Shown: one piece after another, positions 24,875 to 59,515 of the stretch | Numbering within the stretch: position 1 is the first letter of the stretch | Layout: each line of letters opens with the position of its first letter | Origin: Escherichia coli | GTDB taxonomy: Bacteria > Pseudomonadota > Gammaproteobacteria > Enterobacterales > Enterobacteriaceae | Assembly (NCBI RefSeq): GCF_048403405.1 | Contig: NZ_CP183129.1 | Strand: one strand, 5' to 3' | Length of the DNA: 64,000 nucleotides | Made by a program: the position numbers and the translations under genes | The notes under the pieces: model-generated | Database searches by the model: none | Told to the model about the DNA's origin: nothing | The model's input: only the letters and a program-made list of their open reading frames with translations

Positions 24875-24917
24875 TATTGATGCTCTCTATTCCTTGATAT
24901 AAGCGCAGAAGCTGCAT

Positions 24918-33267: not shown

Positions 33268-33789
33268 TTATTCATCGATGCATTTTATAGAATCATCAAT
33301 GGCTACAATAGTACTATTAACTCTCCAATTTATATTTTTATTATCATTGCAAATATTAACTGAATCTATATCAATGATTTTTTTATTTTTATCTTTTATT
33401 TTGTTTACAGTTTCAATGCAATCAGCGACAAGTTGGTGTGGATTTAGATTCTTCAGATATGGTCTTATGATCTTTCCCTTGCTTAATAAATAGCATGTAT
33501 AGGATTCGGAAAGTCCAGCATCTATTTTGTACATCATTATTCTAGATAAGGATGTGAGAAATGCCTTGTTATCATTAGCAGCCATATATGCCAGTCCGAG
33601 TTCAGCCTCTGCGGCTTTACATGAAAAATAGCTAAGTGAACACGCTTTTCGTCCCTCTTGGGTACTGGCTGATATTAGTGCCCATAATATTGCCTTGTCT
33701 GCCAAATCCAACTCTCTCTGAAATTGGTTTACAGTAACTGCATTCGCAGAAATAGAGAAGAAAAGCACAATTGTTAATAACCTTGTCAT
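33268..33789 (-). CDS. Exported Cys-containing protein of unknown function (candidate orphan immunity protein)
   Basis: 173 aa; signal peptide with likely cleavage after ANA; 7 Cys; very AT-rich gene between the Rhs module and yibH. Confidence 0.5.
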   Translation of the reverse strand: MTRLLTIVLFFSISANAVTVNQFQRELDLADKAILWALISASTQEGRKACSLSYFSCKAAEAELGLAYMAANDNKAFLTSLSRIMMYKIDAGLSESYTCYLLSKGKIIRPYLKNLNPHQLVADCIETVNKIKDKNKKIIDIDSVNICNDNKNINWRVNSTIVAIDDSIKCIDE

Positions 33790-34157
33790 ATTTCTAGTCC
33801 GTCACTGTTAATGTGCTATCTGGCTCTGAAAATATTAGCTCATTTAATTTTTGCATGTCATTAGATGAACCAGTTATACAACCCTCGGAACAGAATCGAG
33901 GTCCTAAAGATGGACCAAAAGCGTTTAAACAACTATGTGTTAAAAATCCATCACGATTATACGTTTCTGTATTTGCTGACGGTACTAAACGTATACCATT
34001 AGGTTTTCTATTGGTTGCTCCAGGACTGTTAAGCAAGCCTCGTCCGGTTTGCTTCATTGAGTTCTCCACTTTAGACTATTGGACTATCTTTCAACATGGC
34101 ATCGCCTTAGTATACCGCTGGTTTTCCGCTCATTGTTAATTTTCTCTTTCGTTCATT

Positions 34158-34568
34158 TCACTTAATTTTCAGTTTTTTCCAAAAGTCAATATTCCCTTCT
34201 AATAAAATTTTTTCTATGGAATCTTCATTAATTTTATTATTAGAGCATATGACATTATCTTGAACGCCATATGACACCACCCCGTTTTTATCAATATAAT
34301 ATCTGTCTTTACCATCAATAATATAAATCCTAACATTTTTATCATCAAAATGGTAACACTCATTACTAGACCTGTTCAGTAACATTAATAACTTCTCACG
34401 ATTTATCTGTAATAATTTTTGTGCACCATCTTTTATTGCAAAATTTTCAATTTTACTTTTAGTGACAGGGGAATATGTTTGGATGCGAAAAGGCATCCTA
34501 TAATGGAAAACATCAGCTATACAGCAAGATGAAAAAAATACGGAAATAAAATACAGACATACTTTCAT
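34158..34568 (-). CDS. Putative exported immunity protein cognate to the Rhs C-terminal toxin
   Basis: 136 aa; hydrophobic N-terminus MKVCLYFISVFFSSCC; starts 57 bp after the rhs stop, same strand, with GGAG RBS; AT-rich like the rhs tip. Confidence 0.55.
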   Translation of the reverse strand: MKVCLYFISVFFSSCCIADVFHYRMPFRIQTYSPVTKSKIENFAIKDGAQKLLQINREKLLMLLNRSSNECYHFDDKNVRIYIIDGKDRYYIDKNGVVSYGVQDNVICSNNKINEDSIEKILLEGNIDFWKKLKIK

Positions 34569-34625
34569 ACCATCTCCTAAACTGGTGATATATTAAAAAC
34601 ATACCCAAAAGCAATATAAAAATGT

Positions 34626-37600
34626 TTAATATTTCATTCTTGCTGGCAAGCCCAACTCTTTACGAAATGGGTTTTCATATTTATCAACATTAGCCATCGA
34701 GTCAGTTCCATCGTCTTTCATTCCCTTTGCATGCCCCATTTCATGCGCAAGAACCACACTCAACAGAGTGGGTTTCATGGCACATGCTTTGTTTTTTCCT
34801 TGATATACACATGAGCTATGGTCGTTATCAATATCAATGTAAAAACTATATTCAGTATCATCGTAGCATGTTTGGTTTATGCCTTTTCTTAATCCTCTAA
34901 ATATATATTCATGCTCTGATGACTCTAATTCTTCTGTTATTTTATGTCCAAACTTTGTTTCTGCTACAGCTTTATATGCTTCTTTTAAAGTTTTTTGTGT
35001 ACTTTCATCTCCCTGAAAAGACACTTTTAACCCTAATGGATCGAAACCAGATACCGGATTCAACGGATACTGATAAAAATTCCATCCCCCCTTAAGCCCA
35101 ATCGGATCCTGAGTGATATACCGCCCCTGCAGCGGGTCATAATAGCGGTGGCGGTTGTAATAGAGGCCGGACTCCTCATCATACTGCTGACCCGGCAGGC
35201 GGATGAGCTGCTGCAGCTGGTGCGGGTTCTCTTCATTCAGCAGGTTGCCCCATTCATCGTATTCTGCGCACCATTCTGTTGCCCCTTCCGTGCTGACAAG
35301 CGCCAGCGGCAGGCCGCGATGGTCGCAGTGGTACAGGTGGATTTTTCGCGCCGGCGTGTACACCGGGTCCATCTGGTTTTGTATCTGCTCCACCGTCAGG
35401 CCGCACGATGCCAGCCAGCGGCGGCTTTCCTCACTCACCCGGTCAGCCAGGATTTCACTTTCCAGCCGGTCGAGCATCTGCACCAGCACCGGCGGGAACA
35501 CCACACTGCCACCGTCTTCACCGCCGGACTGCTGAAGCGCATCCGCCAGGCTGCGGCGCTGCGTTTTCGCCAGCTCACCGGTGGCAGTTTCAACTCTGAT
35601 GAGTGGCGTGAAGCTCCCCGGCTGATAAACCGTCTGGATGCGGGTTCTGTCGTTCTGTATTGTGGTCAGCCGGTCGCCGTCCCAGCCGTACCAGGTCACT
35701 TCCGGTTTCCGTGACAGCGACATCCAGCCCGTCAGGTCCCGTTCACGCCGCCACACCCGTTTTGCCACCCTGCGGCCCAGCGGGTCGTAAAGATAGCGAC
35801 TTTCGACCAGCGGCTCTGCATATTGTGTCCGCGTGTAGTGCACCAGCCGGTGCCGGCTGTCGTAATGGTACCGGTGAGTCCGCTCATCATCCGTACGGAT
35901 AACCCCTTCCGGGATGAGGTCGGTTTTCTCCGTCAGCCTGCCGTGACGGTCATACCGGTAAAGATAGTGCGCGTCACGGGCGATACGGTTATCCGGCCAC
36001 ATGCTGAGGGTGCTGTCCGGGTGCAGCTCCGGGTCGGGCAGGCGGTTACCTGCCGGGTCCGTGGCATACGGGATGCGGATATCCAGATTCGCTGCGGTGG
36101 TGTGGACGCCGGTCAGCCTGCCGGTGTCGCTGTAGCTGTAACTCCGGGTCTGGCGCGGGCTGCTGATGCGGATGAGTTCGCCGTTGTCGTTCCAGGTGTA
36201 ATCGCGGTCATACTGCAGGCTGTTCAGGTGCTGGCTCTGTAACTGCCCGGCAGAGGTGTAAGCGGTGGTGAGTTCATAACGGCCGAAGCTGCGCAGCGTT
36301 TCCCGGTGCAGGCGGTCGCGGGTGAAATCCACCAGCGGTGTGTCGCCGAGTTTCATGCCTGACAGCCAGCCGCTGCCGTAGGTCAGCCATTCCACGGCGG
36401 GCAGGCTGTCCGGTATACAGCGGTTCGCCAGTCCCTGCGCGTTGTACGCATGTCTGGTTTCATGCTGCCAGAGCAGTGCTTCCGTCTGCGGGTGATGCAC
36501 CGTCTGGCGCTCACCGGTCAGGCGGCCTTTCTCATCATACCCGTAATGCACCGTCACCCGGTGGCCTTCGCTGAGATGGCTGATGCCTGTCAGCCAGCCG
36601 CGTTCGTCATACTGCCACTGCTCTGCAGGTTCACCCTTCACGGTGCGGTGAGTGAGGCGGTCTGCTTCGTCATAGTGCCAGTGGGTGACCAGCCCCTCAT
36701 CCTCGCTGCGGATAAGTTTACCGGTCAGGTCGTGGTGATAACGCTGTGTGCGGCCGTCAAAGCCGGTTTCCTGTATCAGCCGGTCAAGTACATCGTAACG
36801 GAAGGTGGTGTGGCTGCCGTTTTCACTGGTCAGGCGGATGACCCGCCCGGCAGCATCGTATTCCATACTGCGCGTCAGACCGCCCTGCGTGGTACGAACG
36901 GGCTTTCCCCACGCATCGTACTGTGTCCCGTTTCTGCTGCCGTCCGGGGCAATGACGGCGGTCAGGTCACCGGCGGCGTTGTATTCATACCGCGTTTCAT
37001 GGCCCTGCGTGTCTTTCACCGCAATTAACTGTCCACGGCTGTCGTATGCGCGGTACTGACTCAGCCCTTCCTCGCGGTGCACCGCCGTCACCTGACCAAA
37101 ACGGTCATGGTCATAACGGGTTACATAACCGGAACAGTCAGTGACGGTCAGCAACTGACCGTAACGGCTCCATGTCATGGTTTTCCGGCTGCCGGTGGCA
37201 TCTTCCGTTGCGCAGGGTAAGTCACTGTGTGGATTATCATAACGGTAGCGGGTGATATCGCCGTTGTGTGCGGTTTCCTGAATCAGACGGCCGGATTCAT
37301 CATATTTGCGGCGCAACTCCAGCCCGTCAGTCCCGGTGGCTGACGTTAACTGGTTGTGGTGGTTATAGTAAAATGCCGATGCCCTGCCATCCGGTGTGGT
37401 GATGCGCGTGATGAGTCCCGTCACCACATCCGGGCTGTACTCAGTCGTCCGGCCTGCGGCATCCGTCTGTGCCTTAAGCCCGCCCACCGCGTCAAACTGA
37501 CTCTGCGTGACGCTGCCGTCCGCGTGTTCCTTTTTCACCACCCGCTTCAGCCCGCCTTCGCCCTGCGTGTGCAGCACTTCACGGCGGTCCAGACTGTCGG

Positions 37601-38756
37601 TGATGGTGATGCGGTCTTTCTCATACTGATACGTGTAGCTTAAGCCTGCCGGGTTTAGCTGTTCTGTCACCCGCCCGTCGCTGTCGTAACGGTAACGGAT
37701 ATCCGGCCGGCCCGTGTGACGGTGCGCCACCATCCGGCCCCGGTATTTATCATCGTAAGTAAAGCTGCGCACCTGTGTATTGCTGCGGTCATACACCGCC
37801 GCCAGTTCGCCGCGTGGCGTCCAGCCATAGCGCACCAGCGGCGCGGCAGGTAAATTCTCCGGGTATTCCGGGTCGTGCGTCAGCCACACGGCAGACAGAC
37901 GGATGCCGTTGTCCCGGCCATATTCGGTGTAACCCGGCAGGGTATCAGGAAAAACGGACGGTTCCGCCCCGCCGGAAGAGGCCTGCTGCCGGGCTTCTTC
38001 TGCCCGCTGCGCCTGCGTGGTCAGTACCAGCCGGAAGTGACGCCCGGCACCATCCGTCACGCCGGTGATTTCGCCGCCAGCCTCACGGTGGAACGTCTGT
38101 GTGCGCCCGAAGCGGTCCACCAGCCCGGTCAGTACCCGGTACGGCGGCAGCGGCGCGGGCAGCACCTCATCCGCCTCCGGCACCTGCTCACACCAGCCGA
38201 GTACCCACCACGGCCCCTGCGGACTGTTTGTCGCCAGATAACGATGCGGACTCAGGCGGAGTTCTTCCGGCAGCGCCTGCCAGAGTGCGGCCAGCCGGTG
38301 ACCTTCATCCAGTTTCAGGACACCGCCACGCACCAGCCAGAGTGATTCGCTGCGGCTGTAACCGTCCTCACCGGGAAACAGGTGCTCAAAATACAGGCTC
38401 CTGCCGCCGTTATCACTGAGTATCAGTGTGTTATCGCGCAGCTGTAGGCGGATATCCGCAGGCATTTTCCAGCCGGGGCCGAGGCTCCCCACCGGCGCGG
38501 GCGTTTTTGTCCGGTAACTGCTGTAGGTGCGGGAGAGGATGAACGGCAGCGGGCCGGGCAGGGCAAGGTCGGTTTCGCCGGGAAGGACCTTCGCACCGAG
38601 CAGCGGATTGACCGGATGGCCGGACGTCACCCCGCCGGGGCACACCGAACAGGCCACGCCGGTGGGGGCACCAATACGTACCCCGGCAGAACCCTGAACA
38701 ATGCTACCGCCATACTGCGTCATGTCGCCCTGACGCGCCGCCGGTTTTCCGCTCAT
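34626..38756 (-). CDS. Rhs-family polymorphic toxin with PAAR-like N-terminus and HExxH metallopeptidase-like C-terminal tip
   Basis: 1376 aa; Gly-rich PAAR-like N-terminal region; many YD repeats; core ends ...DPIGL...DPLGL; 133-aa tail contains [20 protein letters not shown] (HEMGH coded at 34728-34745); GC-rich core switches to AT-rich coding at ~35030. Confidence 0.85.
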
Positions 38757-44464: not shown

Positions 44465-46003
44465 ATGACCAATAATCCCCCTTCAGCACAGATTAAGCCC
44501 GGCGAGTATGGTTTTCCTCTTAAGTTAAAAGCCCGTTATGACAACTTTATCGGCGGCGAGTGGGTAGCCCCTGCCGACGGCGAGTATTACCAGAACCTGA
44601 CGCCGGTGACCGGGCAGCTGCTGTGCGAAGTGGCGTCTTCGGGCAAACGAGACATCGATCTGGCGCTGGATGCTGCGCACAAAGTGAAAGATAAATGGGC
44701 GCATACTTCGGTGCAGGATCGTGCGGCGATTCTGTTTAAGATTGCCGATCGAATGGAACAAAACCTTGAACTGTTAGCGACGGCTGAAACCTGGGATAAC
44801 GGCAAACCCATTCGCGAAACCAGTGCTGCTGATGTACCGCTGGCGATTGACCATTTCCGCTATTTCGCCTCGTGTATTCGGGCGCAGGAAGGCGGGATCA
44901 GTGAAGTTGATAGCGAAACCGTGGCCTATCATTTCCATGAACCGTTAGGCGTGGTGGGGCAGATTATCCCGTGGAACTTCCCGCTGCTGATGGCGAGCTG
45001 GAAAATGGCTCCCGCGCTGGCGGCGGGCAACTGTGTGGTGCTGAAACCCGCACGTCTTACCCCGCTTTCTGTACTGCTGCTAATGGAAATCGTCGGTGAT
45101 TTACTGCCGCCGGGCGTGGTGAACGTGGTTAACGGCGCTGGTGGGGAAATTGGCGAATATCTGGCGACCTCGAAACGCATCGCCAAAGTGGCGTTTACCG
45201 GCTCAACGGAAGTGGGCCAACAAATTATGCAGTACGCCACGCAAAATATTATTCCGGTAACCCTGGAACTGGGCGGCAAGTCGCCAAATATCTTCTTTGC
45301 TGATGTGATGGATGAAGAAGATGCCTTTTTCGATAAAGTGCTGGAAGGCTTTGCACTGTTTGCCTTTAACCAGGGCGAAGTTTGCACCTGTCCAAGCCGT
45401 GCTTTAGTGCAGGAGTCTATCTACGAACGCTTCATGGAACGCGCCATCCGCCGTGTTGAAAGTATTCGTAGCGGTAACCCGCTCGACAGCGTGACGCAAA
45501 TGGGCGCGCAGGTATCTCACGGGCAACTGGAAACCATCCTCAATTACATTGATATCGGCAAAAAAGAGGGCGCAGACGTGCTCACCGGCGGGCGGCGCAA
45601 GCTGCTGGAAGGCGAACTGAAAGACGGCTACTACCTCGAACCGACTATTTTGTTTGGTCAGAACAATATGCGGGTGTTCCAGGAGGAGATATTTGGCCCG
45701 GTGCTGGCGGTGACCACCTTCAAAACGATGGAAGAAGCGCTGGAGCTGGCGAACGATACGCAATATGGCCTGGGCGCGGGTGTCTGGAGCCGCAACGGTA
45801 ATCTGGCCTATAAGATGGGGCGCGGCATTCAGGCTGGGCGCGTGTGGACCAACTGTTATCACGCTTACCCGGCACATGCGGCGTTTGGCGGCTACAAACA
45901 GTCGGGCATCGGACGCGAAACCCATAAGATGATGCTTGAGCATTACCAGCAAACCAAGTGCCTGCTGGTGAGCTATTCGGATAAACCGTTGGGGCTGTTC
46001 TGA
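44465..46003 (+). CDS. aldB: Aldehyde dehydrogenase B
   Basis: Start trimmed to [15 protein letters not shown] (512 aa); ALDH-family fold. Confidence 0.95.
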
Positions 46004-46034
46004 TATAAGAAGCTGGTCGCATTGGGTATTCATT

Positions 46035-46102
46035 GCCTGATGCGACGCTTACGCGTTTTATCATGCCTACGGGGACCTGACCGTAGGCCGGATAAGGCGT
46101 AC
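46035..46102. repeat. REP/BIME palindromic units, the second split by IS insertion
   Basis: GCCTGATGCGACGCTTACGCG...ATGCCTAC, then GTAGGCCGGATAAGGCGT whose partner half ACACGCCGCATCCGGC resumes at 47537. Confidence 0.8.
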
Positions 46103-46144
46103 TGAACTGCACCCCAAATGTTGGACATAATCTGACATCTGAAG

Positions 46145-46675
46145 GTGCAGTTTATGAAACATTCATTTGAAGTAAAAATTGCCGCTGTAAATCATTACCT
46201 GGCCGGTCATGCAGGCATCATTTCTACGGCAAAACTCTTTCAACTTTCTCACACCAGCCTCTCACACTGGATTAATCTTTTTCTTCTTCACGGTCCTCGG
46301 GCACTGGATTGCAGACACAGGCGTAGCTATTCTCCTGAAGATAAACTTTGCGTGGTTCTTTATGCTCTCGGGCATTCTGAGTCTCTACCCCGGGTAGCTG
46401 CCCGGTTTAACATTCCCAGCCACAACACGGTTAAAAACTGGATAAAAGGCTACCGCAAATCTGGTAATGAGGCCTTTATCAGGCGCAGGAAGGAGAAAAG
46501 CATGACCCGTTCTGATGATACCCATGAAAACGAAGCAAACATGACGCCGGAAGAGATGAAGAATGAGCTGCGTTATCTTCGCGCAGAAAATGCATATCTG
46601 AAAGCCATGCAGGAGCATCTCCTGGAAAAAAAGCGCCAGGAGCTGGAGAAAAAACGAAAGTCATCCGGAGCCTGA
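46145..46675 (+). CDS. IS transposase OrfA (HTH)
   Basis: 176 aa; helix-turn-helix N-terminus and leucine-zipper-like C-terminus typical of IS3-family OrfA. Confidence 0.85.
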   Translation: MQFMKHSFEVKIAAVNHYLAGHAGIISTAKLFQLSHTSLSHWINLFLLHGPRALDCRHRRSYSPEDKLCVVLYALGHSESLPRVAARFNIPSHNTVKNWIKGYRKSGNEAFIRRRKEKSMTRSDDTHENEANMTPEEMKNELRYLRAENAYLKAMQEHLLEKKRQELEKKRKSSGA

Positions 46676-46779
46676 GGTGCGGACACTGCCAGTCTGACCT
46701 GTTAAAGGCTGCAGGGCTGGCCAGAAGCACGCTGTACTACCAGCTGTCACTGCAGAAGGCTAAGGACAAGTATGCTGAT

Positions 46780-47535
<756 letters not shown>

Positions 47536-47664
47536 ACACGCCGCATCCGGCATAAACAAAGCGCACGTTGTTACAATTTACGTTTTAAACCTACGTGCGC
47601 AATAACCCAATAACCCAGACTACGCCAACAGAAGTGCGTTTCTGGGGCGTGTTTTGCCAGGAGT

Positions 47665-47877
47665 TTAATCTCGCGTTTCGATGGTGAGCGGGCGAACCAG
47701 ACCATAAATCACCATTGGCGTTCCGAGGCCAATCAGCAATAAACGGTAGATAATTGAAGGTTTAATACGCTTAATCTGTACTGTGGATGTTTTACTGGAG
47801 TTATTCATTAGTTTGGCCAATAGTTCCATTATTTCAATATGATAAGCCTCGCACTGTTGAAAAGCCAGGCTGCACAT
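47665..47877 (-). CDS. Hypothetical small protein, possibly spurious
   Basis: 70-aa ORF with hydrophobic C-terminal half between IS copy A and yiaW; no recognisable family. Confidence 0.2.
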   Translation of the reverse strand: MCSLAFQQCEAYHIEIMELLAKLMNNSSKTSTVQIKRIKPSIIYRLLLIGLGTPMVIYGLVRPLTIETRD

Positions 47878-47990
47878 TTCAGAAAGTATATAAAAAACAA
47901 TATGTCGTTATATAAATAAGGAAATTGCACCGCATTATGGTATTTCATAATATGCGTTAATTGTTCTTTTCTATATTCTCTGAGGGAAAT

Positions 47991-48314
47991 ATGTTCCTGG
48001 ATTATTTTGCATTGGGAGTGCTTATTTTTGTATTTCTGGTGATATTCTATGGGATTATTATTTTACATGATGTTCCCTACCTGATTGCTAAAAAACGTAA
48101 TCATCCACATGCCGACGCCATTCATGTTGCTGGTTGGGTAAGTCTTTTTACGTTACATGTTATCTGGCCATTTTTGTGGATTTGGGCCACGCTTTACCGC
48201 CCGGAGCGGGGATGGGGAATGCAAAACCATGACTCCTCCGTTGTGCAACTACAACAGCGTATTGCCGGGCTGGAGAAACAGCTCGCCGACATCAAATCCT
48301 CTTCTGCCGAGTAA
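47991..48314 (+). CDS. yiaW: Small inner-membrane protein (DUF3302-like)
   Basis: Start trimmed to [13 protein letters not shown] (107 aa) with GAGGG RBS; paralogue of yibI. Confidence 0.85.
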
Positions 48315-48319
48315 TACTT

Positions 48320-49456
48320 ATGGATTTACTGATTATTTTAACCTATGTGGCTTTCGCATGGGCAATGTTTAAGATCTTCAAAATTCCTGTAAATAAATGG
48401 ACCATTCCCACAGCGGCCCTGGGTGGCATATTTATTGTCAGCGGTTTAATTCTGTTAATGAACTATAACCATCCGTATACCTTTAAAGCGCAAAAAGCGG
48501 TTATTTCTATTCCTGTTGTCCCACAGGTGACAGGCGTGGTGATCGAAGTGACGGACAAGAAAAATACGCTGATTAAAAAAGGTGAGGTGCTATTTCGACT
48601 GGACCCGACGCGTTATCAGGCGCGGGTGGATCGGCTGATGGCGGATATCGTTACCGCAGAACATAAACAGCGGGCGTTGGGCGCAGAGTTAGATGAGATG
48701 GCGGCGAATACTCAGCAGGCAAAGGCCACGCGGGATAAATTCGCTAAAGAGTATCAGCGTTACGCACGCGGCAGTCAGGCGAAAGTAAACCCGTTTTCAG
48801 AACGTGATATCGATGTGGCGCGGCAAAATTATCTGGCACAGGAAGCCTCCGTAAAATCAGCGGCGGCGGAACAAAAACAGATCCTGAGCCAGCTGGATAG
48901 CCTGGTGTTGGGTGAACATTCTCAAATCGCCAGCCTGAAAGCACAGCTCGCGGAAGCAAAATATAACCTTGAGCAGACGATAGTGCGTGCGCCGAGCGAT
49001 GGTTATGTGACCCAGGTACTGATTCGTCCGGGTACCTATGCCGCGTCGCTGCCGCTACGTCCGGTGATGGTGTTTATACCCGATCAGAAACGACAAATCG
49101 TGGCGCAGTTCCGTCAGAACTCCTTGCTGCGACTGGCTCCTGGCGACGATGCGGAAGTGGTGTTTAATGCTCTGCCAGGTAAGGTATTCAGCGGTAAGCT
49201 GGCAGCCATTAGTCCAGCCGTTCCCGGCGGAGCTTATCAGTCGACCGGCACCTTACAGACGTTAAACACAGCGCCGGGTTCAGATGGCGTTATCGCGACC
49301 ATTGAACTGGATGAGCATACTGATTTGAGCGCATTACCAGACGGTATTTACGCCCAGGTGGCGGTCTACTCTGATCATTTCAGCCATGTCTCGGTGATGC
49401 GCAAAGTACTGTTACGCATGACCAGCTGGGTGCATTACCTTTATCTCGATCATTAA
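48320..49456 (+). CDS. yiaV: HlyD-family membrane-fusion-like protein
   Basis: 378 aa; collinear paralogue of yibH with identical N- and C-terminal stretches. Confidence 0.85.
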
Positions 49457-50427
49457 TCTTCGCTTTCCGCCGTTTGTTCAGGCCGCAGTTGCTGCGACTG
49501 AGCAAGCTGGTGGCGAATTTCACGCAGCATTTCATCCAGCACATACTGGACCCGCCAGGGCTGGTATTCCCGTTTACGGAAGATAGCCACCAGATCCAGC
49601 CACCATTCATACGGGTGCTGAAAGCAGGGCACCAGCGTGCCGTCTTGCAGGTCGCTCTGCACACTTTTGTCTGGCGCAAACACAATCCCCAGGTGATTTC
49701 GTGCCAGCTCCAGCGCAGATTGCGTGTTGTCGCAAACGTAATTTCCCTTCACGCGATAATCCCGCACCTCTTTACTCCCGGCGACGTTGAAGCGCCAGAT
49801 ATTCGCGTCGTCGATCATCATCGAGTCGATCAAAATACAGGAGCGATGTTCGAGTTCGTCAGGACGGCTAATGGGATGTTTCTCAAGATAGCGCTGGCTG
49901 GCATAAGCGGTTACGGCATATTGGGTAATAAAACTGGCAACCAGCGATTCATCTTTTGGTTGGGCGTAGCTGATTAAAACATCACAATCATCGGGAAATT
50001 CGACGCCTTCATAAAAGGCATTACGCTCAAGATTGCAGGTTTTTAGCGATAAGGTGATATCACCGATATCTTTAATTTTATCGATTACATGTTTGGATAA
50101 ATAGGTAATTATGCCGGTTGGTGCATAGATAGTGACCCGACCACGTTTCTCATGCTTATAATCTGCAATAAAATTATTAAGCTGCTCGTTTCTGTCCAGC
50201 ATGTCGTTGATGTACGGTAACAGCACGGTGCCAAAAGGTGTGAGCATCAGCTGTCGGGTGGTTCGGTCAAAGACTTTTAAACCCACTTTTGATTCAAAAT
50301 CAGCAAGATATTTGCTGACGTTGGCCTGTGCGATGCCAAGTACAGTCGCGGCATGGCTGATATTTTCACTGGCAGCGATTACCGAGATAATTTTTAACTC
50401 CCGGTACTTAAGTTGTAATTTTGTCAT
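49453..50427 (-). CDS. yiaU: LysR-family transcriptional regulator
   Basis: 324 aa; N-terminal HTH plus LysR substrate-binding domain. Confidence 0.85.
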
Positions 50428-50550
50428 CGCAACAGCCCAATTATATATAATTTTATATATTACTATATAAATATGAATCTTGCACCGGATAAATTGTAAG
50501 CATTACTATGCCGACTCTTTTTTATCTTATTTTAAAATGGAATACCGGAC

Positions 50551-51291
50551 ATGTTAATTAACCGCAATATTGTGGCGTTATTTGCGTTGCCTTTTATGGC
50601 AAGCGCAACTGCTTCTGAATTATCCATTGGTGCTGGTGCGGCTTATAATGAATCGCCTTATCGCGGTTATAATGAAAATACAAAGGCAATTCCGCTGATT
50701 AGTTATGAAGGTGATACTTTTTATGTTCGTCAGACCACGTTAGGTTTTATTCTGTCGCAAAGTGAAAAAAATGAACTTAGCCTGACCGCATCCTGGATGC
50801 CGCTGGAATTTGACCCTGCCGATAATGACGATTATGCCATGCAACAGCTTGATAAGCGTGATAGTACGGCTATGGCGGGGGTTGCCTGGTATCACCACGA
50901 GCGTTGGGGAACCGTGAAAGCCTCTGCGGCTGCGGACGTTCTGGATAACAGCAACGGCTGGGTGGGGGAGCTATCGGTATTCCACAAAATGCAGATAGGT
51001 CGCCTGTCGCTGACACCTGCGCTGGGCGTTCTCTATTATGACGAGAATTTCAGTGACTATTACTATGGCATTTCAGAGAGTGAGTCCCGTCGTAGCGGTC
51101 TGGCAAGTTATTCCGCGCAGGATGCCTGGGTGCCCTATGTCAGCCTGACGGCAAAATACCCGATAGGAGAGCACGTCGTATTGATGGCGAGCGCAGGATA
51201 CAGCGAGCTGCCGGAAGAGATTACCGACAGCCCGATGGTTGATCGTAATGAGAGTTTTACCTTTGTCACTGGCGTGAGCTGGCGTTTTTAA
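50551..51291 (+). CDS. yiaT: Outer-membrane protein, MipA/OmpV family
   Basis: 246 aa; signal peptide; beta-strand-rich with aromatic C-terminal end ...VSWRF. Confidence 0.8.
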   Translation: MLINRNIVALFALPFMASATASELSIGAGAAYNESPYRGYNENTKAIPLISYEGDTFYVRQTTLGFILSQSEKNELSLTASWMPLEFDPADNDDYAMQQLDKRDSTAMAGVAWYHHERWGTVKASAAADVLDNSNGWVGELSVFHKMQIGRLSLTPALGVLYYDENFSDYYYGISESESRRSGLASYSAQDAWVPYVSLTAKYPIGEHVVLMASAGYSELPEEITDSPMVDRNESFTFVTGVSWRF

Positions 51292-51339
51292 TTCACCGGT
51301 GGATGTCGGTGCGGCTGGCCTACGCTCTCGCACCGACTT

Positions 51340-52116
<777 letters not shown>

Positions 52117-52220
52117 ATCAGCATACTTGTCCTTAGCCTTCTGCAGTGACAGCTGGTAGTACAGCGTGCTTCTGGCCAGCCCTGCAGCCTTTAACAGGTC
52201 AGACTGGCAGTGTCCGCACC

Positions 52221-52751
52221 TCAGGCTCCGGATGACTTTCGTTTTTTCTCCAGCTCCTGGCGCTTTTTTTCCAGGAGATGCTCCTGCATGGCTTTCAGAT
52301 ATGCATTTTCTGCGCGAAGATAACGCAGCTCATTCTTCATCTCTTCCGGCGTCATGTTTGCTTCGTTTTCATGGGTATCATCAGAACGGGTCATGCTTTT
52401 CTCCTTCCTGCGCCTGATAAAGGCCTCATTACCAGATTTGCGGTAGCCTTTTATCCAGTTTTTAACCGTGTTGTGGCTGGGAATGTTAAACCGGGCAGCT
52501 ACCCGGGGTAGAGACTCAGAATGCCCGAGAGCATAAAGAACCACGCAAAGTTTATCTTCAGGAGAATAGCTACGCCTGTGTCTGCAATCCAGTGCCCGAG
52601 GACCGTGAAGAAGAAAAAGATTAATCCAGTGTGAGAGGCTGGTGTGAGAAAGTTGAAAGAGTTTTGCCGTAGAAATGATGCCTGCATGACCGGCCAGGTA
52701 ATGATTTACAGCGGCAATTTTTACTTCAAATGAATGTTTCATAAACTGCAC
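52221..52751 (-). CDS. IS transposase OrfA, copy B
   Basis: Identical 176-aa product to copy A. Confidence 0.85.
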   Translation of the reverse strand: MQFMKHSFEVKIAAVNHYLAGHAGIISTAKLFQLSHTSLSHWINLFLLHGPRALDCRHRRSYSPEDKLCVVLYALGHSESLPRVAARFNIPSHNTVKNWIKGYRKSGNEAFIRRRKEKSMTRSDDTHENEANMTPEEMKNELRYLRAENAYLKAMQEHLLEKKRQELEKKRKSSGA

Positions 52752-52793
52752 CTTCAGATGTCAGATTATGTCCAACATTTGGGGTGCAGTTCA

Positions 52794-52865
52794 GTTAAGC
52801 GTCGCATCAGGCAATGTGCACCCTACGGTGGATGCGGCGCGAGTGCCTTATCCAACCTACGGATG
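52794..52865. repeat. REP/BIME palindromic units flanking IS copy B
   Basis: AGCGTCGCATCAGGC ... GGATGCGGCGCGAGTGCCTTATCCAACCTACGG; overlaps the 3' end of the glycoside hydrolase gene. Confidence 0.7.
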
Positions 52866-54827
52866 GCAATGCTTTTCCTCATTCACCCAGATCCGCATTT
52901 CGCCTTCACCCCGGTTGGCCCAGCTAAACCACGGGATAAACGTTAGAGTTTGCGGCTGGCGTTTGGCTGGCGCGCTGTCGTAATGCCACAGCGGTTGCTG
53001 CTCTGGATTGCTCTGTTCATACCGGTAACCCGGAGCCTGGATTAAGATCTTATGGCGGAACAATCCCTTGCCTTCAAATGTCGTAAATGGCGCATCGGCG
53101 GGCAGCCACAGGTTATGCAGTGACTCGCCGTTGTCGGCCTGTTCCAGGCAATACACCAGCGGGCCGCGCTGAATCGCCACTTTTCCGGCGACGTGACGCA
53201 CCTGAGGGTTACCGTAAACGCGGCGTACCGGCATCGGCAAAGTCAGATTCAGCGTATCGCCCTCCTGCCATTCGCGGGTAATGTGCAAATACCCTTTACG
53301 AATATCCTGCCCGACCTCTTCCCCATTCAATATGATCTGCGGCTGTGTGCACCAGTCCGGCAGACGTAAAGCCAGCGTATGACGCACCGGCTGGGGCGAT
53401 TCAACCGCAATCGTCACCTGCTCCTGCCACGGATAGTTTCCGCTAACCCGCAGACGCAGCGTGCCATTTTCTACCGGCACTTCCATGCTGTTTCCTGCGT
53501 AGATGTTGATATACAACGCATCTTCACGCGGCGTGTAGAGATAATGACCAATCGAGGTTAGCACGCGGGCGATATTTGGCGGACAACAAGCGCAACCAAA
53601 CCAACGCTGGCGGATCGGCTTAACGTGATCGTAGATATGGTTGAATTTTAACGTTTTTGGATGCACTTCCAGCGGATTCACATAGAAGAAATGTTTGCCA
53701 TCCAGCGCCATGCCGCCGAGCACGGTGTTGTACAGTGCGCGCTCCATCACATCGGCATATTGACTGTCGCCTTCCATTTCCAGCATTCGCCGGGCGAACA
53801 TCATCAGGCCGATGGAAGCACAGCTTTCGGCGTATACCGTGTCATTCGGCAGATCGTAATCGCTGCTGAACGCTTCGCCGCTGCTTTGTGAGCCAATGCC
53901 GCCGGTAATATATAACTGACGCTGGGCCATATTGTTCCACAGCCGCAGGCAATCCTGACGCTTGCTTTCATCGTGACTTAAACGCGCCAGATGTGCGACG
54001 CCAGTCATCAGATATACAAAGCGTACTGCATGTCCGATGGCGGTTTGTTGCTGTGCGATGGGTAAATGCGCCTGGCTGTAGGCTTTATCTTTCACCATCC
54101 ACGCCGGGCCGTAGGTGTGCCAGTGCGAGGTCTGCCCGCGCTTTTCATATTCCTGGTCGTAATAGTGCGGTTGCGCACCACGCTGTTCGACAAAATAGTT
54201 CGCCAGCGCCAGGTAGCGCGGCTCTTCGGTCACTTCATACAGGCGCATTAGTGCCAGTTCAATTTCCGGGTGACCAGGATAACCGTGTAACTTACTTTCA
54301 CCTGGACCAAATACGCTGTCGATATGATCGGCCAGACGGCAAACCACTTCCAGCAAGCGCCGCTTGCCCGTGGCCTGGAAGAAGGCGACTCCGGCTTCAA
54401 TCAGATGACCGGCGCAGTAAAGTTCATGACACTCCGCCAGATTGCTCCAGCGTTCTTCGGGCGCTTTTACCGTAAAGTAAGTATTGAGATAGCCATCTTC
54501 GCACTGGGCGGAAGCGACCAGTTCGATTACCTCGTCAGCAGTTTTTTCCAGTTCGGCATCCGGCTTCTGGCACAGCGACCAGGCTACCGCTTCCAGCCAT
54601 TTGGCGACGTCGCTGTCCTGAAACACCATCCCGTAAAATTCACCGTCTTGCAGTCCTGCGGCAATGCGAAAGTTTTCAATCGCATGGCTGGGTTCCGCTT
54701 CTGGGATACGATCGTTCAAGGCATCCCACTGATAAGGAATCACCACGTCGCGGACCAGTTGTTGGTACTGACCGAGGAACGGATCGCTGACCGTCAGTTT
54801 ATGCAGATCGACTTCCGAAATGTTCAT
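52857..54827 (-). CDS. Glycoside hydrolase family 127 (DUF1680, beta-L-arabinofuranosidase-like)
   Basis: Start trimmed to MNISEVDLHKL (656 aa) with GGAG RBS 10 bp after the transporter stop; conserved Cys-rich segment WFGCACCPPN of the family as I recall it. Confidence 0.7.
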   Translation of the reverse strand: MNISEVDLHKLTVSDPFLGQYQQLVRDVVIPYQWDALNDRIPEAEPSHAIENFRIAAGLQDGEFYGMVFQDSDVAKWLEAVAWSLCQKPDAELEKTADEVIELVASAQCEDGYLNTYFTVKAPEERWSNLAECHELYCAGHLIEAGVAFFQATGKRRLLEVVCRLADHIDSVFGPGESKLHGYPGHPEIELALMRLYEVTEEPRYLALANYFVEQRGAQPHYYDQEYEKRGQTSHWHTYGPAWMVKDKAYSQAHLPIAQQQTAIGHAVRFVYLMTGVAHLARLSHDESKRQDCLRLWNNMAQRQLYITGGIGSQSSGEAFSSDYDLPNDTVYAESCASIGLMMFARRMLEMEGDSQYADVMERALYNTVLGGMALDGKHFFYVNPLEVHPKTLKFNHIYDHVKPIRQRWFGCACCPPNIARVLTSIGHYLYTPREDALYINIYAGNSMEVPVENGTLRLRVSGNYPWQEQVTIAVESPQPVRHTLALRLPDWCTQPQIILNGEEVGQDIRKGYLHITREWQEGDTLNLTLPMPVRRVYGNPQVRHVAGKVAIQRGPLVYCLEQADNGESLHNLWLPADAPFTTFEGKGLFRHKILIQAPGYRYEQSNPEQQPLWHYDSAPAKRQPQTLTFIPWFSWANRGEGEMRIWVNEEKHCHP

Positions 54828-54837
54828 CTTGTGCTCC

Positions 54838-56238
54838 TTAAGGCTGTACATGACGCTGACGCAGGTCGCTAGCAATGCGTGACATCATAGGGTTATTGAG
54901 TTTGCAAAAGCGGATCGCCCCTGCCAGCAGCAGGTGGAATAGCGCAGGCAGCAATGTTTCCATCGCCGTGATCCCGCCAAGCGAACTGGTGGTCTGGTTT
55001 TCCACGCCTGGCTGGTAGGCGACAAAAATAAACAGCAGGCTGATGATCCCGGCGCTGGAGGCCCAGGCCAGCTTGATGAAAAACAGATTGAAGGCGAAGT
55101 TCATGCCGGAAGAACGTACGCGGGTTTTCCACTCGCCGTAGTCATCGGCAAAGGCCATCAATGAGAAGTGCAGTGGCAATGTGAAGCCAAGAATCACGCC
55201 ATTACCGAGGATCACCGCCAGCCACAGCGTTTGATAAGCCGGGCCGGAGGGCAGGAACCACATCAACACCGCCAGCGCAGCGAGGAGCAGGTTGGTGTAG
55301 TAATAAATTTTGACGGTATCGAAACGCCGCGTTAACGGGCTGACAATCACCGAGCCGATAATGGAGGCGAAGGTGACCATGGTGAAGAACAGCGACGTGT
55401 AGCCCGTACTGCCTTGTAAGACGTAGGTAATGAAGTACATATACCCACCGCCGCGAATGTTAAAGACGTTAATCAGCAGGAAAGACATGACCAGCATCAG
55501 CAGTAGTTGGTCGTTGTTTCGCAGCCCGGCAAGATGTTCGCGCAGGGTAAATTTCCCCATTGTGGAGAGTGGCACCCGTTCACGAACCCAGAAGAAACAG
55601 CACAGGAACATCACCACAGCGATGGCGCACAGCACGCCGACGCCCAGTTGATAGCCGCGCGCGGCATTACCCTGACCGAAGAGATCTACCATCCACGGTA
55701 AGCCTACCGAAACCAGAAATCCCGCTACGCCGCAGAGAACGAATCGCCAGGACTGGCAGGAGATCACTTCATTGTGGCGGGTGGTCATGGTGTTGATCAG
55801 CGCGCAGTACGGCACGTTGATGGCGGTATAACCGACTGAAAGGAGCAGGTAAGTGCCGAACGCCCAGGCGATTTTTACTCCCATGCTGGCATCTGGCACG
55901 GTGAACGTCAGGATGCCGATAATGCCGATGGGAATGGCAATCCATAACTGCCACGGACGAAAGCGCCCCCAGCGACTTTGCGTCCGGTCGGCAATGACGC
56001 CCATCACCGGGTCGGAGATGGCATCAAACACGCGCAGTGCAATAAACAGCGTGCCGACCAGCGCCGGAGTTAAGCCAAAAACGTCGGTGTAGAAAAAGGT
56101 GAGAAAGTTCATGATCAGGCAAGTTATTACGGTGCCGCCTGCGTCACCCAGGCCGTAGCCTATTTTTTCCCGTACAGATAACGCATCGTCAATTTTACCT
56201 TTAGCGATATCAGCGGCAGTAATCGGTGTAGAGGTCAT
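54838..56238 (-). CDS. GPH-family glycoside/pentoside/hexuronide:cation symporter
   Basis: 466 aa; 12-TM MFS-like protein with MelB/YicJ-type N-terminal motif; immediately upstream of the hydrolase gene. Confidence 0.8.
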
Positions 56239-56463
56239 AGATATTCCTCGTGAATAGGGAGCAATTTTTAGTTTTATTGCAATGACCTGATTAATTCTGC
56301 CGTGAACGGGAATATCAACAAGGCGAGAAAAGAGTAAAAAAAGGTGACGATTCCGACCTGAATTTAAAAGTGTGAAATGGATCAGGTGAATTTAATGTTT
56401 TTGATTAATAATCAAAAGGTAATGTGTTTAATCATTAATGAATAAGCGGGAAATTACATATCA

Positions 56464-57279
56464 ATGCTCGAATTATCCATGACGTTACCGATTAAAGTGC
56501 AAAATGGTGGATTATTTATTTCCCGTGGCGTAGGGAGGCATCCGGCAAGGCGGCTGGAGTCATGGGAAATTATCTTTGTCGAAAAAGGTCGATTAACGAT
56601 TCAGGAAGAAGAGCGGATATTTCTGGTCGATGCGGGAGAGAGTTTATTACTCTGGCCGAACCGACAGCATGTTGGGGTAGAGGATTTTCCCGCCGATCTC
56701 AAATTTTACTGGCTGCATTTTGAGGTTAAAGCGCCGGATAGCGACCCGCGCTGGCTCACTCATCTTAGCGTGCCGCAACAAACGAAGGTTGCCGATCCGC
56801 AGGCGCTGGTGGCCCTGTTTCGCCAGTTCTTAAGCGAACAGGAAAAGCATCAACGCACTCCGGCGCTGGAGTTTATTGTGCTGCTGATTTTGCAGCAGCT
56901 CACCCGTGACGCGCGTCTTGATGAACAGGCCGATGCCGCAGGTACCACGCTTGCCTGGAAAGCGCAGAAACTGATCCGCACGCAATATCATCGCCCGCTT
57001 TCTACGGCGCTTTTAGCCCGCGAGCTGTACTGCAATGCCGATTATCTTGGGCGTGTCTATCGGCGGGTGTTTCATCTGACGTTAACAGAAGCAATTCATC
57101 GCCAGCGAGTGCGCGAAGCCGAAAAGCTGTTAATTAGCGAAGCGCGATCGCTCACTGAAGTGGCGGCGTTGTGCGGGTTTAATGACGTTGGCTATTTCCG
57201 GCAGATTTTTCGCAAACACACCGGTTTAACGCCAGCTGCGTGGAAGCGACGTTACAGCAAGGAACATATCAATTCGTAG
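56464..57279 (+). CDS. AraC/XylS-family transcriptional regulator
   Basis: 271 aa; cupin-like N-terminal domain, C-terminal dual HTH; divergent from the transporter-hydrolase pair. Confidence 0.8.
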   Translation: MLELSMTLPIKVQNGGLFISRGVGRHPARRLESWEIIFVEKGRLTIQEEERIFLVDAGESLLLWPNRQHVGVEDFPADLKFYWLHFEVKAPDSDPRWLTHLSVPQQTKVADPQALVALFRQFLSEQEKHQRTPALEFIVLLILQQLTRDARLDEQADAAGTTLAWKAQKLIRTQYHRPLSTALLARELYCNADYLGRVYRRVFHLTLTEAIHRQRVREAEKLLISEARSLTEVAALCGFNDVGYFRQIFRKHTGLTPAAWKRRYSKEHINS

Positions 57280-57280
57280 T

Positions 57281-57302
57281 GCCGGGGCAATGAAGCCCCG
57301 GC
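57281..57302. terminator. GC-rich hairpin between convergent AraC-like gene and sgbE
   Basis: GCCGGGGC-AATGAA-GCCCCGGC fills the 31-bp gap; no T-run, so factor-independent termination is uncertain. Confidence 0.5.
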
Positions 57303-57310
57303 GTGAGGGA

Positions 57311-58006
57311 TTACTGCCCGTAATAGGCATTGGCCCCATGCTTACGCAGGTAGTGCTTATCCAGCAGTTCGTTTTGCATCGCAGGGAGCTGCGGCGCAAG
57401 CTGGCGCGAGAACAGGCCCATATAGGCGCACTCTTCCAGCACTACGGCATTATGCACCGCATCGGCGGCATTTTTTCCCCAGGCGAACGGGCCGTGAGAA
57501 TGCACCAGCACCGCCGGGATTTGTGCCGGACTCCTGCCGCGTTCTTCGAAAGTTTCAATGATCACTTCGCCGGTCTGATATTCATATTCGCCGTTAATCT
57601 CCTCTGCGGTCATCTGTCGCGTGCAGGGGATTGCGCCATAGAAATAATCAGCGTGCGTGGTGCCCCAGGCGGGGAGATCCAGCCCGGCCTGTGACCAGAT
57701 GGTCGCGTGGCGCGAGTGGGTATGCACAATGCCACCGATTTCGGCATAGCGACGGTAGAGCGCCAGATGCGTTGGCGTGTCGGACGAGGGCTTTTTGCTA
57801 CCTTCCACCACCTTGCCGCTGGCTATCTCAACCACCACCATATCGTCGGCGGTCATCACGTCGTACTCGACGCCGGAAGGTTTGATTACCATCCATTGCC
57901 GCGTTTCGTCTACCGCGCTGACATTGCCCCAGGTGAACGTCACCAGATGGTGAGCGGGAAGCGCCAGATTCGCCGCCAGCACGTCGGCTTTCAGTTGCTC
58001 TAACAT
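57311..58006 (-). CDS. sgbE: L-ribulose-5-phosphate 4-epimerase
   Basis: 231 aa class II aldolase/AraD family; last gene of the yiaK-sgb operon. Confidence 0.9.
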
Positions 58007-58860
58007 ATAAAACCTGCCTCCTGCATACGCGCTTCAATCCAGCGCCGCGCCTGAATAATCTCCAGCACCGGCTCTTTGGCTTTTTCGGTCCACATCTCAA
58101 TCAGGAAAGAACCGCGATAGTTCAGTTCATGCAGCGTTTTGAAGATGCCAACGAAATCGACGCAGCCTTCGCCAAACGGCACGTCGCGGAACTGTCCGGG
58201 GCTTTGCCCGGTGACTGGCAGGGTGTCTTTCAGGTGGATCGCGGCGATACGATCAATGCCCAGTTTCAGTTCGGCGGGAACATCATTGCCCCAGGCGCTG
58301 AGGTTGCCGACGTCCGGGTAGACGGTGAACCACGGCGAGGCGAGCATCTCGTCCCATTTTTTCCATTTGCTGATGGAGTTCATAAACGCGGTGTCCATAA
58401 TCTCCACCGCCAGCATTACTTGTGATGCCGCCGCCTGTTCGACCGCCCACGCCAGCCCTTCAGCAAAACGTTGCCGGGTGCCTTCGTCGTGGTCTTCGTA
58501 ATAGACGTCGTAGCCCGCCAGCTGGATGGTGCGAATGCCGAGATCGCGCGCCAGGCGAATCGCTTTACTCATGATTTCCCGCGCCCGTTCGCGCACCGCC
58601 TCGTCCCGGCTGCCAAAGGGAAAGCGACGATGTGCGGACAGGCACATTGACGGAATGGCAACACCCGTTTCGATCATCGCGGCAACCAGCGAAGTCCTTT
58701 GTGCGGCGCTCCAGTCAAGACGTGAGAGCCGTTCGTCGGTTTCATCCACCGACATTTCGACAAAATCAAAACCGCAGCTTTTTGCCAGCACCAGCCGTTC
58801 CGGCCAGGAGAGATCTTTCGCCAGCGCTTTTTCATAAATACCTAACGGATGATTACGCAC
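58000..58860 (-). CDS. sgbU: L-xylulose-5-phosphate 3-epimerase
   Basis: Start trimmed to GTG-initiated (M)[12 protein letters not shown] (286 aa); TIM-barrel sugar epimerase. Confidence 0.85.
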
Positions 58861-59515
58861 GCGCGCCTCCCCAGATAGCATCAATTTGCGCATGGAAATC
58901 TGCAGCCACCTGTGCCGGATTTGCCGCGCCTGCCAGTGCTCGCCCGGCAATAAACGCTTTCACGCGGATATCTTTAAACAGCGGCAGGTCAGCAGGGGTA
59001 ATCCCGCCGGTAATGGAAAGCTCAAGGCCGATATCGGAAAGTGCCTTCATGCGTGCCAGATCGGCTTCGCCCCACTGTTGCCCGCTGGCCTGTGCATCAC
59101 GACCACGATGATAAATGGCCTGCCGCACGCCAATACGATGCCAGTCGCAGGCGTCGTCCAGCGTCCAGTTACCGAACAGCTCGATCTGAATTTCACCACC
59201 GCAGCGTTGCGCCATGGCGTGGCCTTTTTCCACCGTCGCGAGCGGCGCGGCGCAGATGATGGTCATCCAGTTGGCACCCGCGCCAAACGCCTGTTGCGCG
59301 AGCGTTTCACCCGCGTCGGCGACCTTCCAGTCGGCAACGATGATTTTGTCCGGGCACTGTTCGCGCAAGGCTTTCACCGCGCCAAGCCCTTCGTTTAAAC
59401 AGAGAATGGTGCCCGCTTCGACGATATCGACGCTGTCTTTTAACAGCGTCACGTCGCGCTGCGCGGCTTCAAGTGATGAATGGTCGAGGGCCAGTTGCAG
59501 AAGTGGTCGGCTCAT
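58853..59515 (-). CDS. sgbH: 3-keto-L-gulonate-6-phosphate decarboxylase
   Basis: 220 aa OMP-decarboxylase-like. Confidence 0.9.

Follow-up and report, generated by a model that had tools for sequence, protein, structure and literature searches.

The subject of this report is a three-gene module lying between yiaT and sgbE in a 64,000-nucleotide stretch of Escherichia coli DNA (RefSeq assembly GCF_048403405.1, contig NZ_CP183129.1; the whole stretch is referred to here as the window), comprising a gene for an AraC/XylS-family regulator and, divergent from it, a two-gene operon for a glycoside-pentoside-hexuronide (GPH) family cation symporter and a family 127 glycoside hydrolase (GH127), with all coordinates given in Table 1. 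We find that the presence of this module at its site is the ancestral state of E. coli and its relatives, and that the module has been inherited vertically, conserved where it was kept, and repeatedly lost. The best overall explanation, to which we assign a probability of about 0.7, is a vertically inherited chromosomal catabolic module organized as an activator-controlled two-gene operon; within it, the gene identities and the deletion history are close to certain. What carries this reading is directly observed, namely the gene identities, conserved catalytic and zinc-site residues, purifying selection, synteny, a deletion scar, and allele frequencies. A preliminary description of this DNA had taken the trio for a self-contained uptake and hydrolysis system for a plant-derived glycoside, inserted as an island between genes that adjoin each other in K-12. 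Its three genes, their divergent layout, the 10-bp gap and the 656-residue hydrolase are all there, and its functional reading is reasonable, whereas its evolutionary reading is reversed. The module is real, ordinary and already catalogued, with its products labeled in RefSeq as "glycoside hydrolase family 127 protein", "MFS transporter" and "AraC family transcriptional regulator" in thousands of genomes.

The K-12 genome carries a record of this history. Here, yiaT and sgbE are indeed neighbors, separated by 346 bp, but this spacer holds 190 bp of the GH127 gene (window 52965-53154, 90.5% identity, encoding residues 559-621), as well as 135 bp corresponding to window 57176-57310, which cover the terminal 104 bp of the regulator gene (residues 239-271 plus the stop codon) together with the terminator hairpin that follows it. 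In MG1655, the GH127 piece is annotated as ysaD (b4649) and the regulator piece as ysaC (b4648), both pseudogenes, which have served as a neutral integration site (PMC12361893). They share the locus of the module and are its remnants, ysaC corresponding to the 3' terminus of the regulator gene and ysaD to a stretch inside the GH127 gene toward its 3' side, but differ from it in being non-functional fragments (102 and 192 bp, respectively). The scar results from two deletions, one of ~4.0 kb (53155-57175), and one that removed a bacterial interspersed mosaic element (BIME) along with the final 108 bp of the GH127 gene; a GGCTGG microhomology lies at the junction of the latter. The module thus merely looks inserted, because K-12 deleted it while keeping two pseudogene scraps. 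By the preliminary description's own account, the presence of all three genes at this site in K-12 would have spoken against an insertion; remnants of two of them (GH127 and regulator) are found there.

The module was then compared with its relatives by scanning one genome per species, which yielded 263 stretches with relatives, from which the best 80 loci were kept. Among these, the trio is intact in ~70, from Enterobacteriaceae and related families and in differing genomic contexts, which supports the earlier idea of a self-contained uptake and hydrolysis unit in that the three genes travel together in ~70 enterobacterial species. The order lyxK-sgbH-sgbU-sgbE / regulator / symporter-GH127 / yiaT-yiaU is also found in Citrobacter, Enterobacter, Lelliottia, Huaxiibacter and Pseudocitrobacter, with amino acid identities to these relatives (80-88% for GH127 and 88-91% for the GPH carrier) in the range of those of the flanking genes. 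The GC content of the module (0.52-0.58) is like that of its neighbors, with no compositional anomaly; the module has neither an integrase nor tRNA or att features, and there are 0 plasmid copies among 4,788 matching places. Tests for a genomic island therefore all failed: the empty site is not clean (K-12, IAI1), the outgroups are occupied, and the composition is normal. For each of the three genes, the ratio of nonsynonymous to synonymous substitution rates (dN/dS) lies at 0.03-0.10, whether computed within E. coli or against Citrobacter, Lelliottia and Salmonella (0.03-0.07 for the GH127 gene and 0.05-0.09 for the symporter gene). The tie to the yia-sgb operon implied by the preliminary description is weak, and functional dependence on sgbE or this operon was rejected as unnecessary, as O157:H7 retains the module after losing the yiaK-sgbE operon, Escherichia whittamii lacks sgbE, and the trio lies elsewhere in many genera. 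In E. whittamii (L005 4508-4552; L004), sgbU is directly followed by a terminator and the AraC-type gene, with sgbE absent and the module intact.

Within the species, we took a census of 5,426 complete E. coli genomes, of which 2,313 have the full-length module and 2,461 the K-12-type scar including both of its junctions; ~640 show no trace of either the genes or the scar. Reference strains were sampled at the locus for phylogroups A, B1, B2, E and F; we take MG1655 and J53 to represent A, IAI1 to represent B1, CFT073 and LF82 to represent B2, O157:H7 to represent E and IAI39 to represent F. MG1655, J53 and IAI1 all have the K-12-type scar and, because its junctions are shared, we read it as a single old deletion common to A and B1. 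The other states of the locus are independent events. In CFT073 (L094 8258-8305) and LF82 (L091 35955-36002), sgbE is followed by 46 bp and then aldB, the module and yiaWVUT being both gone with no detectable remnant of either, whereas O157:H7 has retained both and lost the entire yiaK-sgbE operon, leaving a yiaJ fragment. The arrangement is complete in IAI39 (L097 6178-8157), where an in-frame stop at GH127 codon 574 is an independent inactivation of this gene. The interval from aldB to yiaJ comes in five or more allelic states within the species.

Further rearrangements were seen around this locus. In the O157:H7 strain TB21-1 (L086 11446-11586), a C-terminal fragment of yiaJ (IclR) stands beside the AraC-type gene, with yiaK-yiaO-lyxK-sgbHUE gone. 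Some E. coli have the order aldB-hicA-hicB-GH127, with a toxin-antitoxin pair replacing yiaWVUT, and in others aldB adjoins GH127 directly (L084 6306-6918; L085 7058-9027); in the aldB-GH127 strains without yiaWVUT, GH127 is annotated as frameshifted by the Prokaryotic Genome Annotation Pipeline (PGAP). In strain VTB97420v (L088/L089), an IS1/ISEc1-associated rearrangement has fused the selB region with yibH and the rhsB region with yhhJ, and the aldB-yia region is displaced.

All three family assignments hold, and the genes are not chance open reading frames (ORFs), as shown by Pfam E-values of 7e-113 (GH127), 7e-73 (transporter) and 4e-19 (helix-turn-helix (HTH) domain of the regulator). The hydrolase has the three-domain GH127 architecture of a catalytic (alpha/alpha)6 domain, a middle domain and a C-terminal domain, corresponding to PF07944 (residues 12-427, E = 7e-113), PF20736 (438-532) and PF20737 (534-649). 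Its best PDB match is 4QJY (E = 2e-236, 54.9% identity, 790 bits, residues 11-650 vs 16-647), and it also matches the HypBA1 structure (E = 1e-152, 43.7% identity, 513 bits). In the same PDB sequence search, GH127 structures score 319-790 bits vs 27-64 bits for 5OPJ and 8K7X/Y, which we take to be chains of the sister DUF1680 family GH146, and on these scores the hydrolase is placed nearer to GH127 than to GH146. Its sole NCBIfam match is the aceric-acid hydrolase equivalog NF049879, at 451.7 bits against a curated cutoff of 950, and since this cutoff is missed we consider the protein to be a GH127 member but not an aceric-acid hydrolase. The GH127/DUF1680 assignment of the preliminary description, along with the glycosidase family that it had proposed to verify by hidden Markov models, is hence borne out by the Pfam domains, the 4QJY match and the catalytic residues.

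In the alignment, residues H142, H194, H270, E322, E338, C340, C415, C417 and C418 of HypBA1 correspond to H134, H186, H266, E318, E334, C336, C412, C414 and C415 of the hydrolase. The GH127 mechanism (in HypBA1 numbering) involves Cys417 as the nucleophile, Glu322 as the acid/base, and a zinc ion held by a Cys3-Glu site (PMC8106489). Cys417 aligns with Cys414 and Glu322 with Glu318, and the zinc-site residues are conserved as Glu334, Cys336, Cys414 and Cys415. In HypBA1, this site is made up of Glu338, Cys340, Cys417 and Cys418, and the three histidines, all conserved in the hydrolase, are those that we take to line the sugar pocket of HypBA1. All residues checked near the -1 arabinofuranose site of HypBA1 are conserved. 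On reading the sequence, no features of a signal peptide were found at the N-terminus of the hydrolase, and for this reason we expect it to be cytoplasmic, like HypBA1. The longest ORF of the gene spans 52857..54875 (-), and an AAGGAG ribosome site spanning the symporter stop codon lies ahead of the start given in Table 1. The hydrolase has 656 residues in the window vs 659 in strain 10, being three residues shorter because a point change (window 52848-52859) creates a TAG inside the downstream repetitive extragenic palindromic (REP) element, into which the C-terminal codons extend in both strains alike.

The symporter scores 332.4 bits against TIGR00792 (gph), above its cutoff of 231.35 bits and covering positions 1-437 of 437, and matches Pfam MFS_2 over its full length (1-426 of 427, E = 7e-73), in agreement with the GPH assignment made earlier. 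It misses the cutoffs of all of the named carriers (354 bits vs 610 for the YagG subfamily, 323 vs 836 for PRK11462, 207 vs 456 for MelB and 191 vs 528 for the glucuronide transporter), and is, on account of missing all equivalog and subfamily cutoffs, best regarded as a distinct carrier. The regulator was likewise correctly placed in the AraC family, with a cupin-type AraC_binding domain (residues 26-132, E = 2.5e-9) followed by a double HTH domain (HTH_18, residues 184-263, E = 4e-19). Its top NCBIfam match is AraC (NF007860), at 61.5 bits and far below the cutoff of 208, and by this measure the regulator is not AraC itself. A PDB sequence search with the regulator matched the HTH domain only, with no solved relative of the ligand domain, and the structures thus give no hint as to its ligand.

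Alignment of the divergent spacers of 72 enterobacterial genomes gave a footprint of four blocks conserved on the operon strand: a CRP-like site, a repeat block, a -10-like element and a ribosome site (Table 1). The right half of the CRP-like site is perfect and the left half weak (3/5). The two direct repeats, exactly 21 bp apart, lie inside a conserved block of ~45 bp, with the second covering the -35 position; assuming a transcription start ~7 nt past CAGAAT, the CRP site would be centered at about -91, and the repeats would extend from about -72 to -30. Scanning positions 52700-57400 for consensus sigma-70 promoters gave none, which we read as activator dependence, and not as absence of a promoter. 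The arrangement resembles that of araC-araBAD, in which a divergent AraC-family gene is likewise paired with an activator-dependent promoter without a consensus -35 element, two direct half-sites with a 21-bp period have the proximal one on the -35, and a CRP-type site lies further upstream. The two systems differ in that the regulator here is not AraC and has a ligand domain without a solved relative, and in that the sites here are predicted. We consider the chances to be about even that the operon promoter is driven by the regulator bound to the direct repeats together with CRP, as this conservation would suggest. In addition, a perfect 7-1-7 palindrome, TTGATTATTAATCAA (56399-56415, operon strand), is found near the regulator start and kept in most of the 72 spacers; it could be an autoregulation operator or the site of another factor.

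We infer the following scheme, which extends to the substrate, the inducer, the promoter elements, and how transport is directed and coupled. A small beta-L-arabinofuranoside would be freed by plant enzymes or other microbes acting on arabinans or hydroxyproline-rich glycoproteins of plants, with beta-1,2-L-arabinobiose or a related short oligosaccharide being the best candidate. This compound would pass the outer membrane via porins and enter the cell through the symporter, upon which the zinc/cysteine-nucleophile GH127 would cleave it in the cytoplasm to L-arabinose for the araBAD pathway, while the AraC/XylS-type activator on the two repeats, with CRP upstream, would switch on the operon promoter. 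That the substrate is a beta-L-arabinofuranoside is probable from the structural matches and conserved residues described above, and it would be scavenged from the products of others, given that no extracellular partner is encoded nearby.

This logic has a precedent in Bifidobacterium longum, where beta-arabinobiose (beta-Ara2) is freed outside the cell, imported, and split by the intracellular HypBA1 (PMC7263609). The HypBA1 system of strain JCM 1217 shares with the module an intracellular GH127 with the same cysteine nucleophile, glutamate acid/base and Cys3-Glu zinc site and, by analogy, may share the import of a small beta-L-arabinofuranoside that is cut to L-arabinose in the cytoplasm. 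It differs in that the two enzymes are only 43.7% identical, in that an ABC system with a beta-Ara2-specific binding protein takes the place of the single GPH symporter found here, and in that the module is controlled by an AraC-type regulator and has no GH121 or GH43 extracellular partners nearby, such that the substrate must come from others. Ara127N, a GH127 beta-L-arabinofuranosidase of Geobacillus stearothermophilus T6 (PDB 4QJY/4QK0), is the best solved relative, matching end to end with the same three domains; it comes from a Gram-positive thermophile. The E. coli pairs yicJ-yicI (alpha-xyloside), yagG-yagH, uidA-uidB and melA-melB share the co-transcription of one GPH carrier with one cytoplasmic glycosidase, and among named NCBIfam models the symporter matches the YagG subfamily and PRK11462 ("glycoside-pentoside-hexuronide family transporter") best; however, it falls below every equivalog and subfamily cutoff, and the partner enzyme is a GH127 here, whereas the partners in those pairs belong to GH31, GH43, GH2 or GH4. 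We note that yicJ-yicI was found annotated in LF82.

Three other readings compete with that of a vertically inherited catabolic module. Were the trio a horizontally gained island inserted between yiaT and sgbE, K-12 would represent the original empty site, and the 346-bp K-12 gap, the insertion sequence (IS) on one flank in the window, the absence of the module from more than half of the complete E. coli genomes and the 72%-identical GH127 in Bradyrhizobium, an enzyme gene that has crossed phyla at some time, could all be taken in its favor. However, the K-12 spacer holds decayed fragments of the GH127 and regulator genes, several other genera have an identical gene order at the site and have diverged there as much as in the flanking genes, and there is no GC anomaly, plasmid copy, or integrase, tRNA or att feature. 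Moreover, yiaT, the module and sgbE are contiguous without an IS in 830 genomes, while the IS-bearing arrangement is found at full coverage in the best match only, and only 9 records match at ≥99% identity. The island claimed in the preliminary description is therefore not borne out, being refuted in practice by the K-12 remnants together with the outgroup synteny, and we consider it extremely improbable. Alternatively, the module could be a decaying relic in E. coli, kept by chance in some lineages and without a present physiological role, as might be suggested by four or more independent events of loss or inactivation (the scar in A/B1, the deletion in CFT073/LF82, the codon-574 stop in IAI39 and the PGAP-annotated frameshift in Esc20). 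Against this, the low dN/dS of all three genes, within the species and between genera, indicates continued purifying selection, the ORFs are full length in the window and the module is so in 2,313 genomes, the promoter-region blocks are conserved among 72 species, and O157:H7 retained the module while deleting the neighboring operon, making a mere relic quite unlikely.

A further possibility is that the layout is as described but that the enzyme is not a plant-glycan beta-L-arabinofuranosidase, acting instead on another furanoside, an unusual sugar linkage or a non-plant glycoside. GH127 is polyspecific, with precedents in a Bacteroides aceric-acid hydrolase and in marine bacterial 3,6-anhydro-D-galactosidases; NCBIfam gives no match other than the aceric-acid hydrolase model, PDB 6EX6 and 5MQO match as well, and the symporter is no orthologue of any characterized GPH carrier. 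Nevertheless, the aceric-acid model reaches only 452 bits vs its cutoff of 950, the closest solved relatives are two beta-L-arabinofuranosidases (790 and 513 bits, vs 392 for 6EX6), and every residue checked at the -1 site of HypBA1 is conserved, and we thus deem a different specificity unlikely, if less so than the relic. The catabolic module reading itself has points weighing against it. We know of no secreted E. coli enzyme that would free the proposed substrate, and the pathway would for that reason rely on cross-feeding. Searchable literature yielded no biochemical or genetic experiments on the E. coli proteins, GH127 includes other specificities with the sole NCBIfam match far below its cutoff, and the ligand domain of the regulator has no characterized close relative in the PDB sequence search. 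The proposed promoter, CRP site and repeats were predicted from conservation, and only three of five bases match in the left CRP half-site. Finally, the repeated loss or inactivation of the module (the A/B1 scar, the B2 deletion, the IAI39 stop and the frameshift-annotated strain) means that it is dispensable in many niches.

Taking these limitations into account, the catabolic module reading yields a cheap prediction, namely that use of beta-L-arabinofuranosides by E. coli is strain-dependent. It is conceivable, though we hold this only tentatively, that lineages with an intact module, among them O157:H7 and numerous extraintestinal strains, though neither K-12 and B1 nor CFT073 and LF82, take up and grow on beta-L-arabinofuranosyl disaccharides or glycosides freed by bifidobacteria or from plant tissue. 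A study of O157:H7 and arabinose on plants states that E. coli is unable to access L-arabinofuranose directly, and does not mention the GH127 gene (PMC8489885); growth of this kind, if true, would contradict that assumption. It would also define a nutrient niche, based on cross-feeding and variable among strains, of relevance for colonizing the gut or plants. A 2024 pangenome association study of adherent-invasive E. coli and inflammatory bowel disease (IBD) isolates found the E. coli GH127 to be an accessory gene co-segregating with epithelial invasion, and assigned beta-1,2-arabinobiose hydrolysis to it by homology (PMC11879602), a co-segregation in IBD isolates that such growth would possibly explain. 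The value of the locus as a discovery is small, as the families are correctly annotated, the K-12 remnants are named, and the E. coli GH127 is already part of an association study. It is, however, a clear case of a conserved catabolic module lost repeatedly within one species, and a lesson that "absent from K-12" does not equal "inserted", K-12 and B1 being here the derived, deleted state.

Table 1. Features of the module and its surroundings, in window coordinates; the PGAP annotation is taken from strain 4621, the chromosome of which matches window 50400-58100 at 100% identity.
Feature	Position	Strand	Remarks
Second IS1397 copy, 100% identical, inverted	46103..47534	+	REP loop between aldB and yiaW; duplication TAC
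yiaT (MipA/OmpV family outer-membrane protein), left flank	50551..51291	+	
IS1397 (IS3 family), 1432 bp	51362..52793	-	PGAP, NCBIfam IS3, ends and duplication
BIME remnant	52794..52856		target duplication GTTA, right REP half, second REP; compared with IS-free strain 10
GH127 family glycoside hydrolase, 656 aa; predicted cytoplasmic beta-L-arabinofuranosidase (EC 3.2.1.185)	52857..54827	-	ATG at 54827; PGAP start in strain 4621 agrees
Intercistronic spacer, 10 nt, GGAGCACAAG	54828..54837	-	sequence read directly
GPH family (TC 2.A.2) cation symporter, 466 aa; first of two operon genes	54838..56238	-	
Divergent regulatory region, 225 bp, AT-rich	56239..56463		between operon and regulator gene
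Shine-Dalgarno sequence GAGGAA	56249-56244	operon (-)	footprint, predicted
-10-like CAGAAT	56299-56294	operon (-)	footprint, predicted
Direct repeats TCACCTTTTT and TCGCCTTGTT	56347-56338 and 56326-56317	operon (-)	footprint, predicted
CRP-like site CCTGA-N6-TCACA	56386-56371	operon (-)	footprint, predicted
AraC/XylS-family regulator, 271 aa	56464..57279	+	
GC-rich hairpin GCCGGGGC-AATGAA-GCCCCGGC	57281..57302		between convergent regulator and sgbE genes
sgbE (L-ribulose-5-phosphate 4-epimerase), right flank; last gene of yiaK-sgbE operon	57311..58006	-	

The hairpin at 57281-57302, which is also kept in the K-12 spacer, is probably a bidirectional terminator. A scan of window 45000-59000 against Rfam matched no RNA family.

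The IS that the preliminary description had noticed at the flank of the module is an IS1397 copy on the yiaT side, and its start of 52794 for the locus is the first base past this element, given that IS1397 ends at 52793. The element has an IS3-type transposase with a programmed frameshift (NCBIfam IS3, 300 bits), a length of ~1.43 kb, and terminal inverted repeats with 23/30 bases matching between the ends. IS1397 is specific for insertion in REP palindromic units (PMC1525189), and this copy sits in the REP loop GCCTGATAAGACG-TGTTAA-GCGTCGCATCAGGC, with duplication GTTA. The second REP of the BIME remnant overlaps the GH127 stop codon. Disruption of the operon by IS1397 was considered and rejected, as the element lies 63 bp beyond the GH127 stop and has only split a REP, leaving the three genes intact; it is a late, strain-specific insertion, lacking in most carriers of the module and no part of it. 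The two IS1397 copies bracket yiaW-yiaV-yiaU-yiaT, the block missing in several E. coli lineages, and such a paired inverted arrangement could allow inversion or composite-transposon-like behavior.

Some of the more distant relatives have other arrangements. In Bradyrhizobium spp. (L074-L079, L082), GH127 is 71-73% identical to that of E. coli, with the symporter and regulator absent, which suggests inter-phylum transfer of the enzyme gene; in one of these loci (L079), the gene directly upstream of GH127 encodes an S9 (oligopeptidase B-like) peptidase, perhaps pointing to a glycopeptide context. The neighborhoods of the Bradyrhizobium GH127 and of the Pantoea ananatis trio contain no arabinose-pathway partners, the Pantoea neighbors being unrelated. 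An assembly labeled "Chryseobacterium sp. 18061" (L028) carries a typical enterobacterial trio, with a GH127 85% identical to that of E. coli, and is probably mislabeled or contaminated. Elsewhere in the window, positions 19646-25601 and 33268-38756 are two known variable regions, the former with a 5.2-kb gene for a YadA-like trimeric autotransporter (UpaG-type) and a SadB/YajI lipoprotein gene, and the latter with a gene for an Rhs core protein and, after it, one for an Imm57-family immunity protein.

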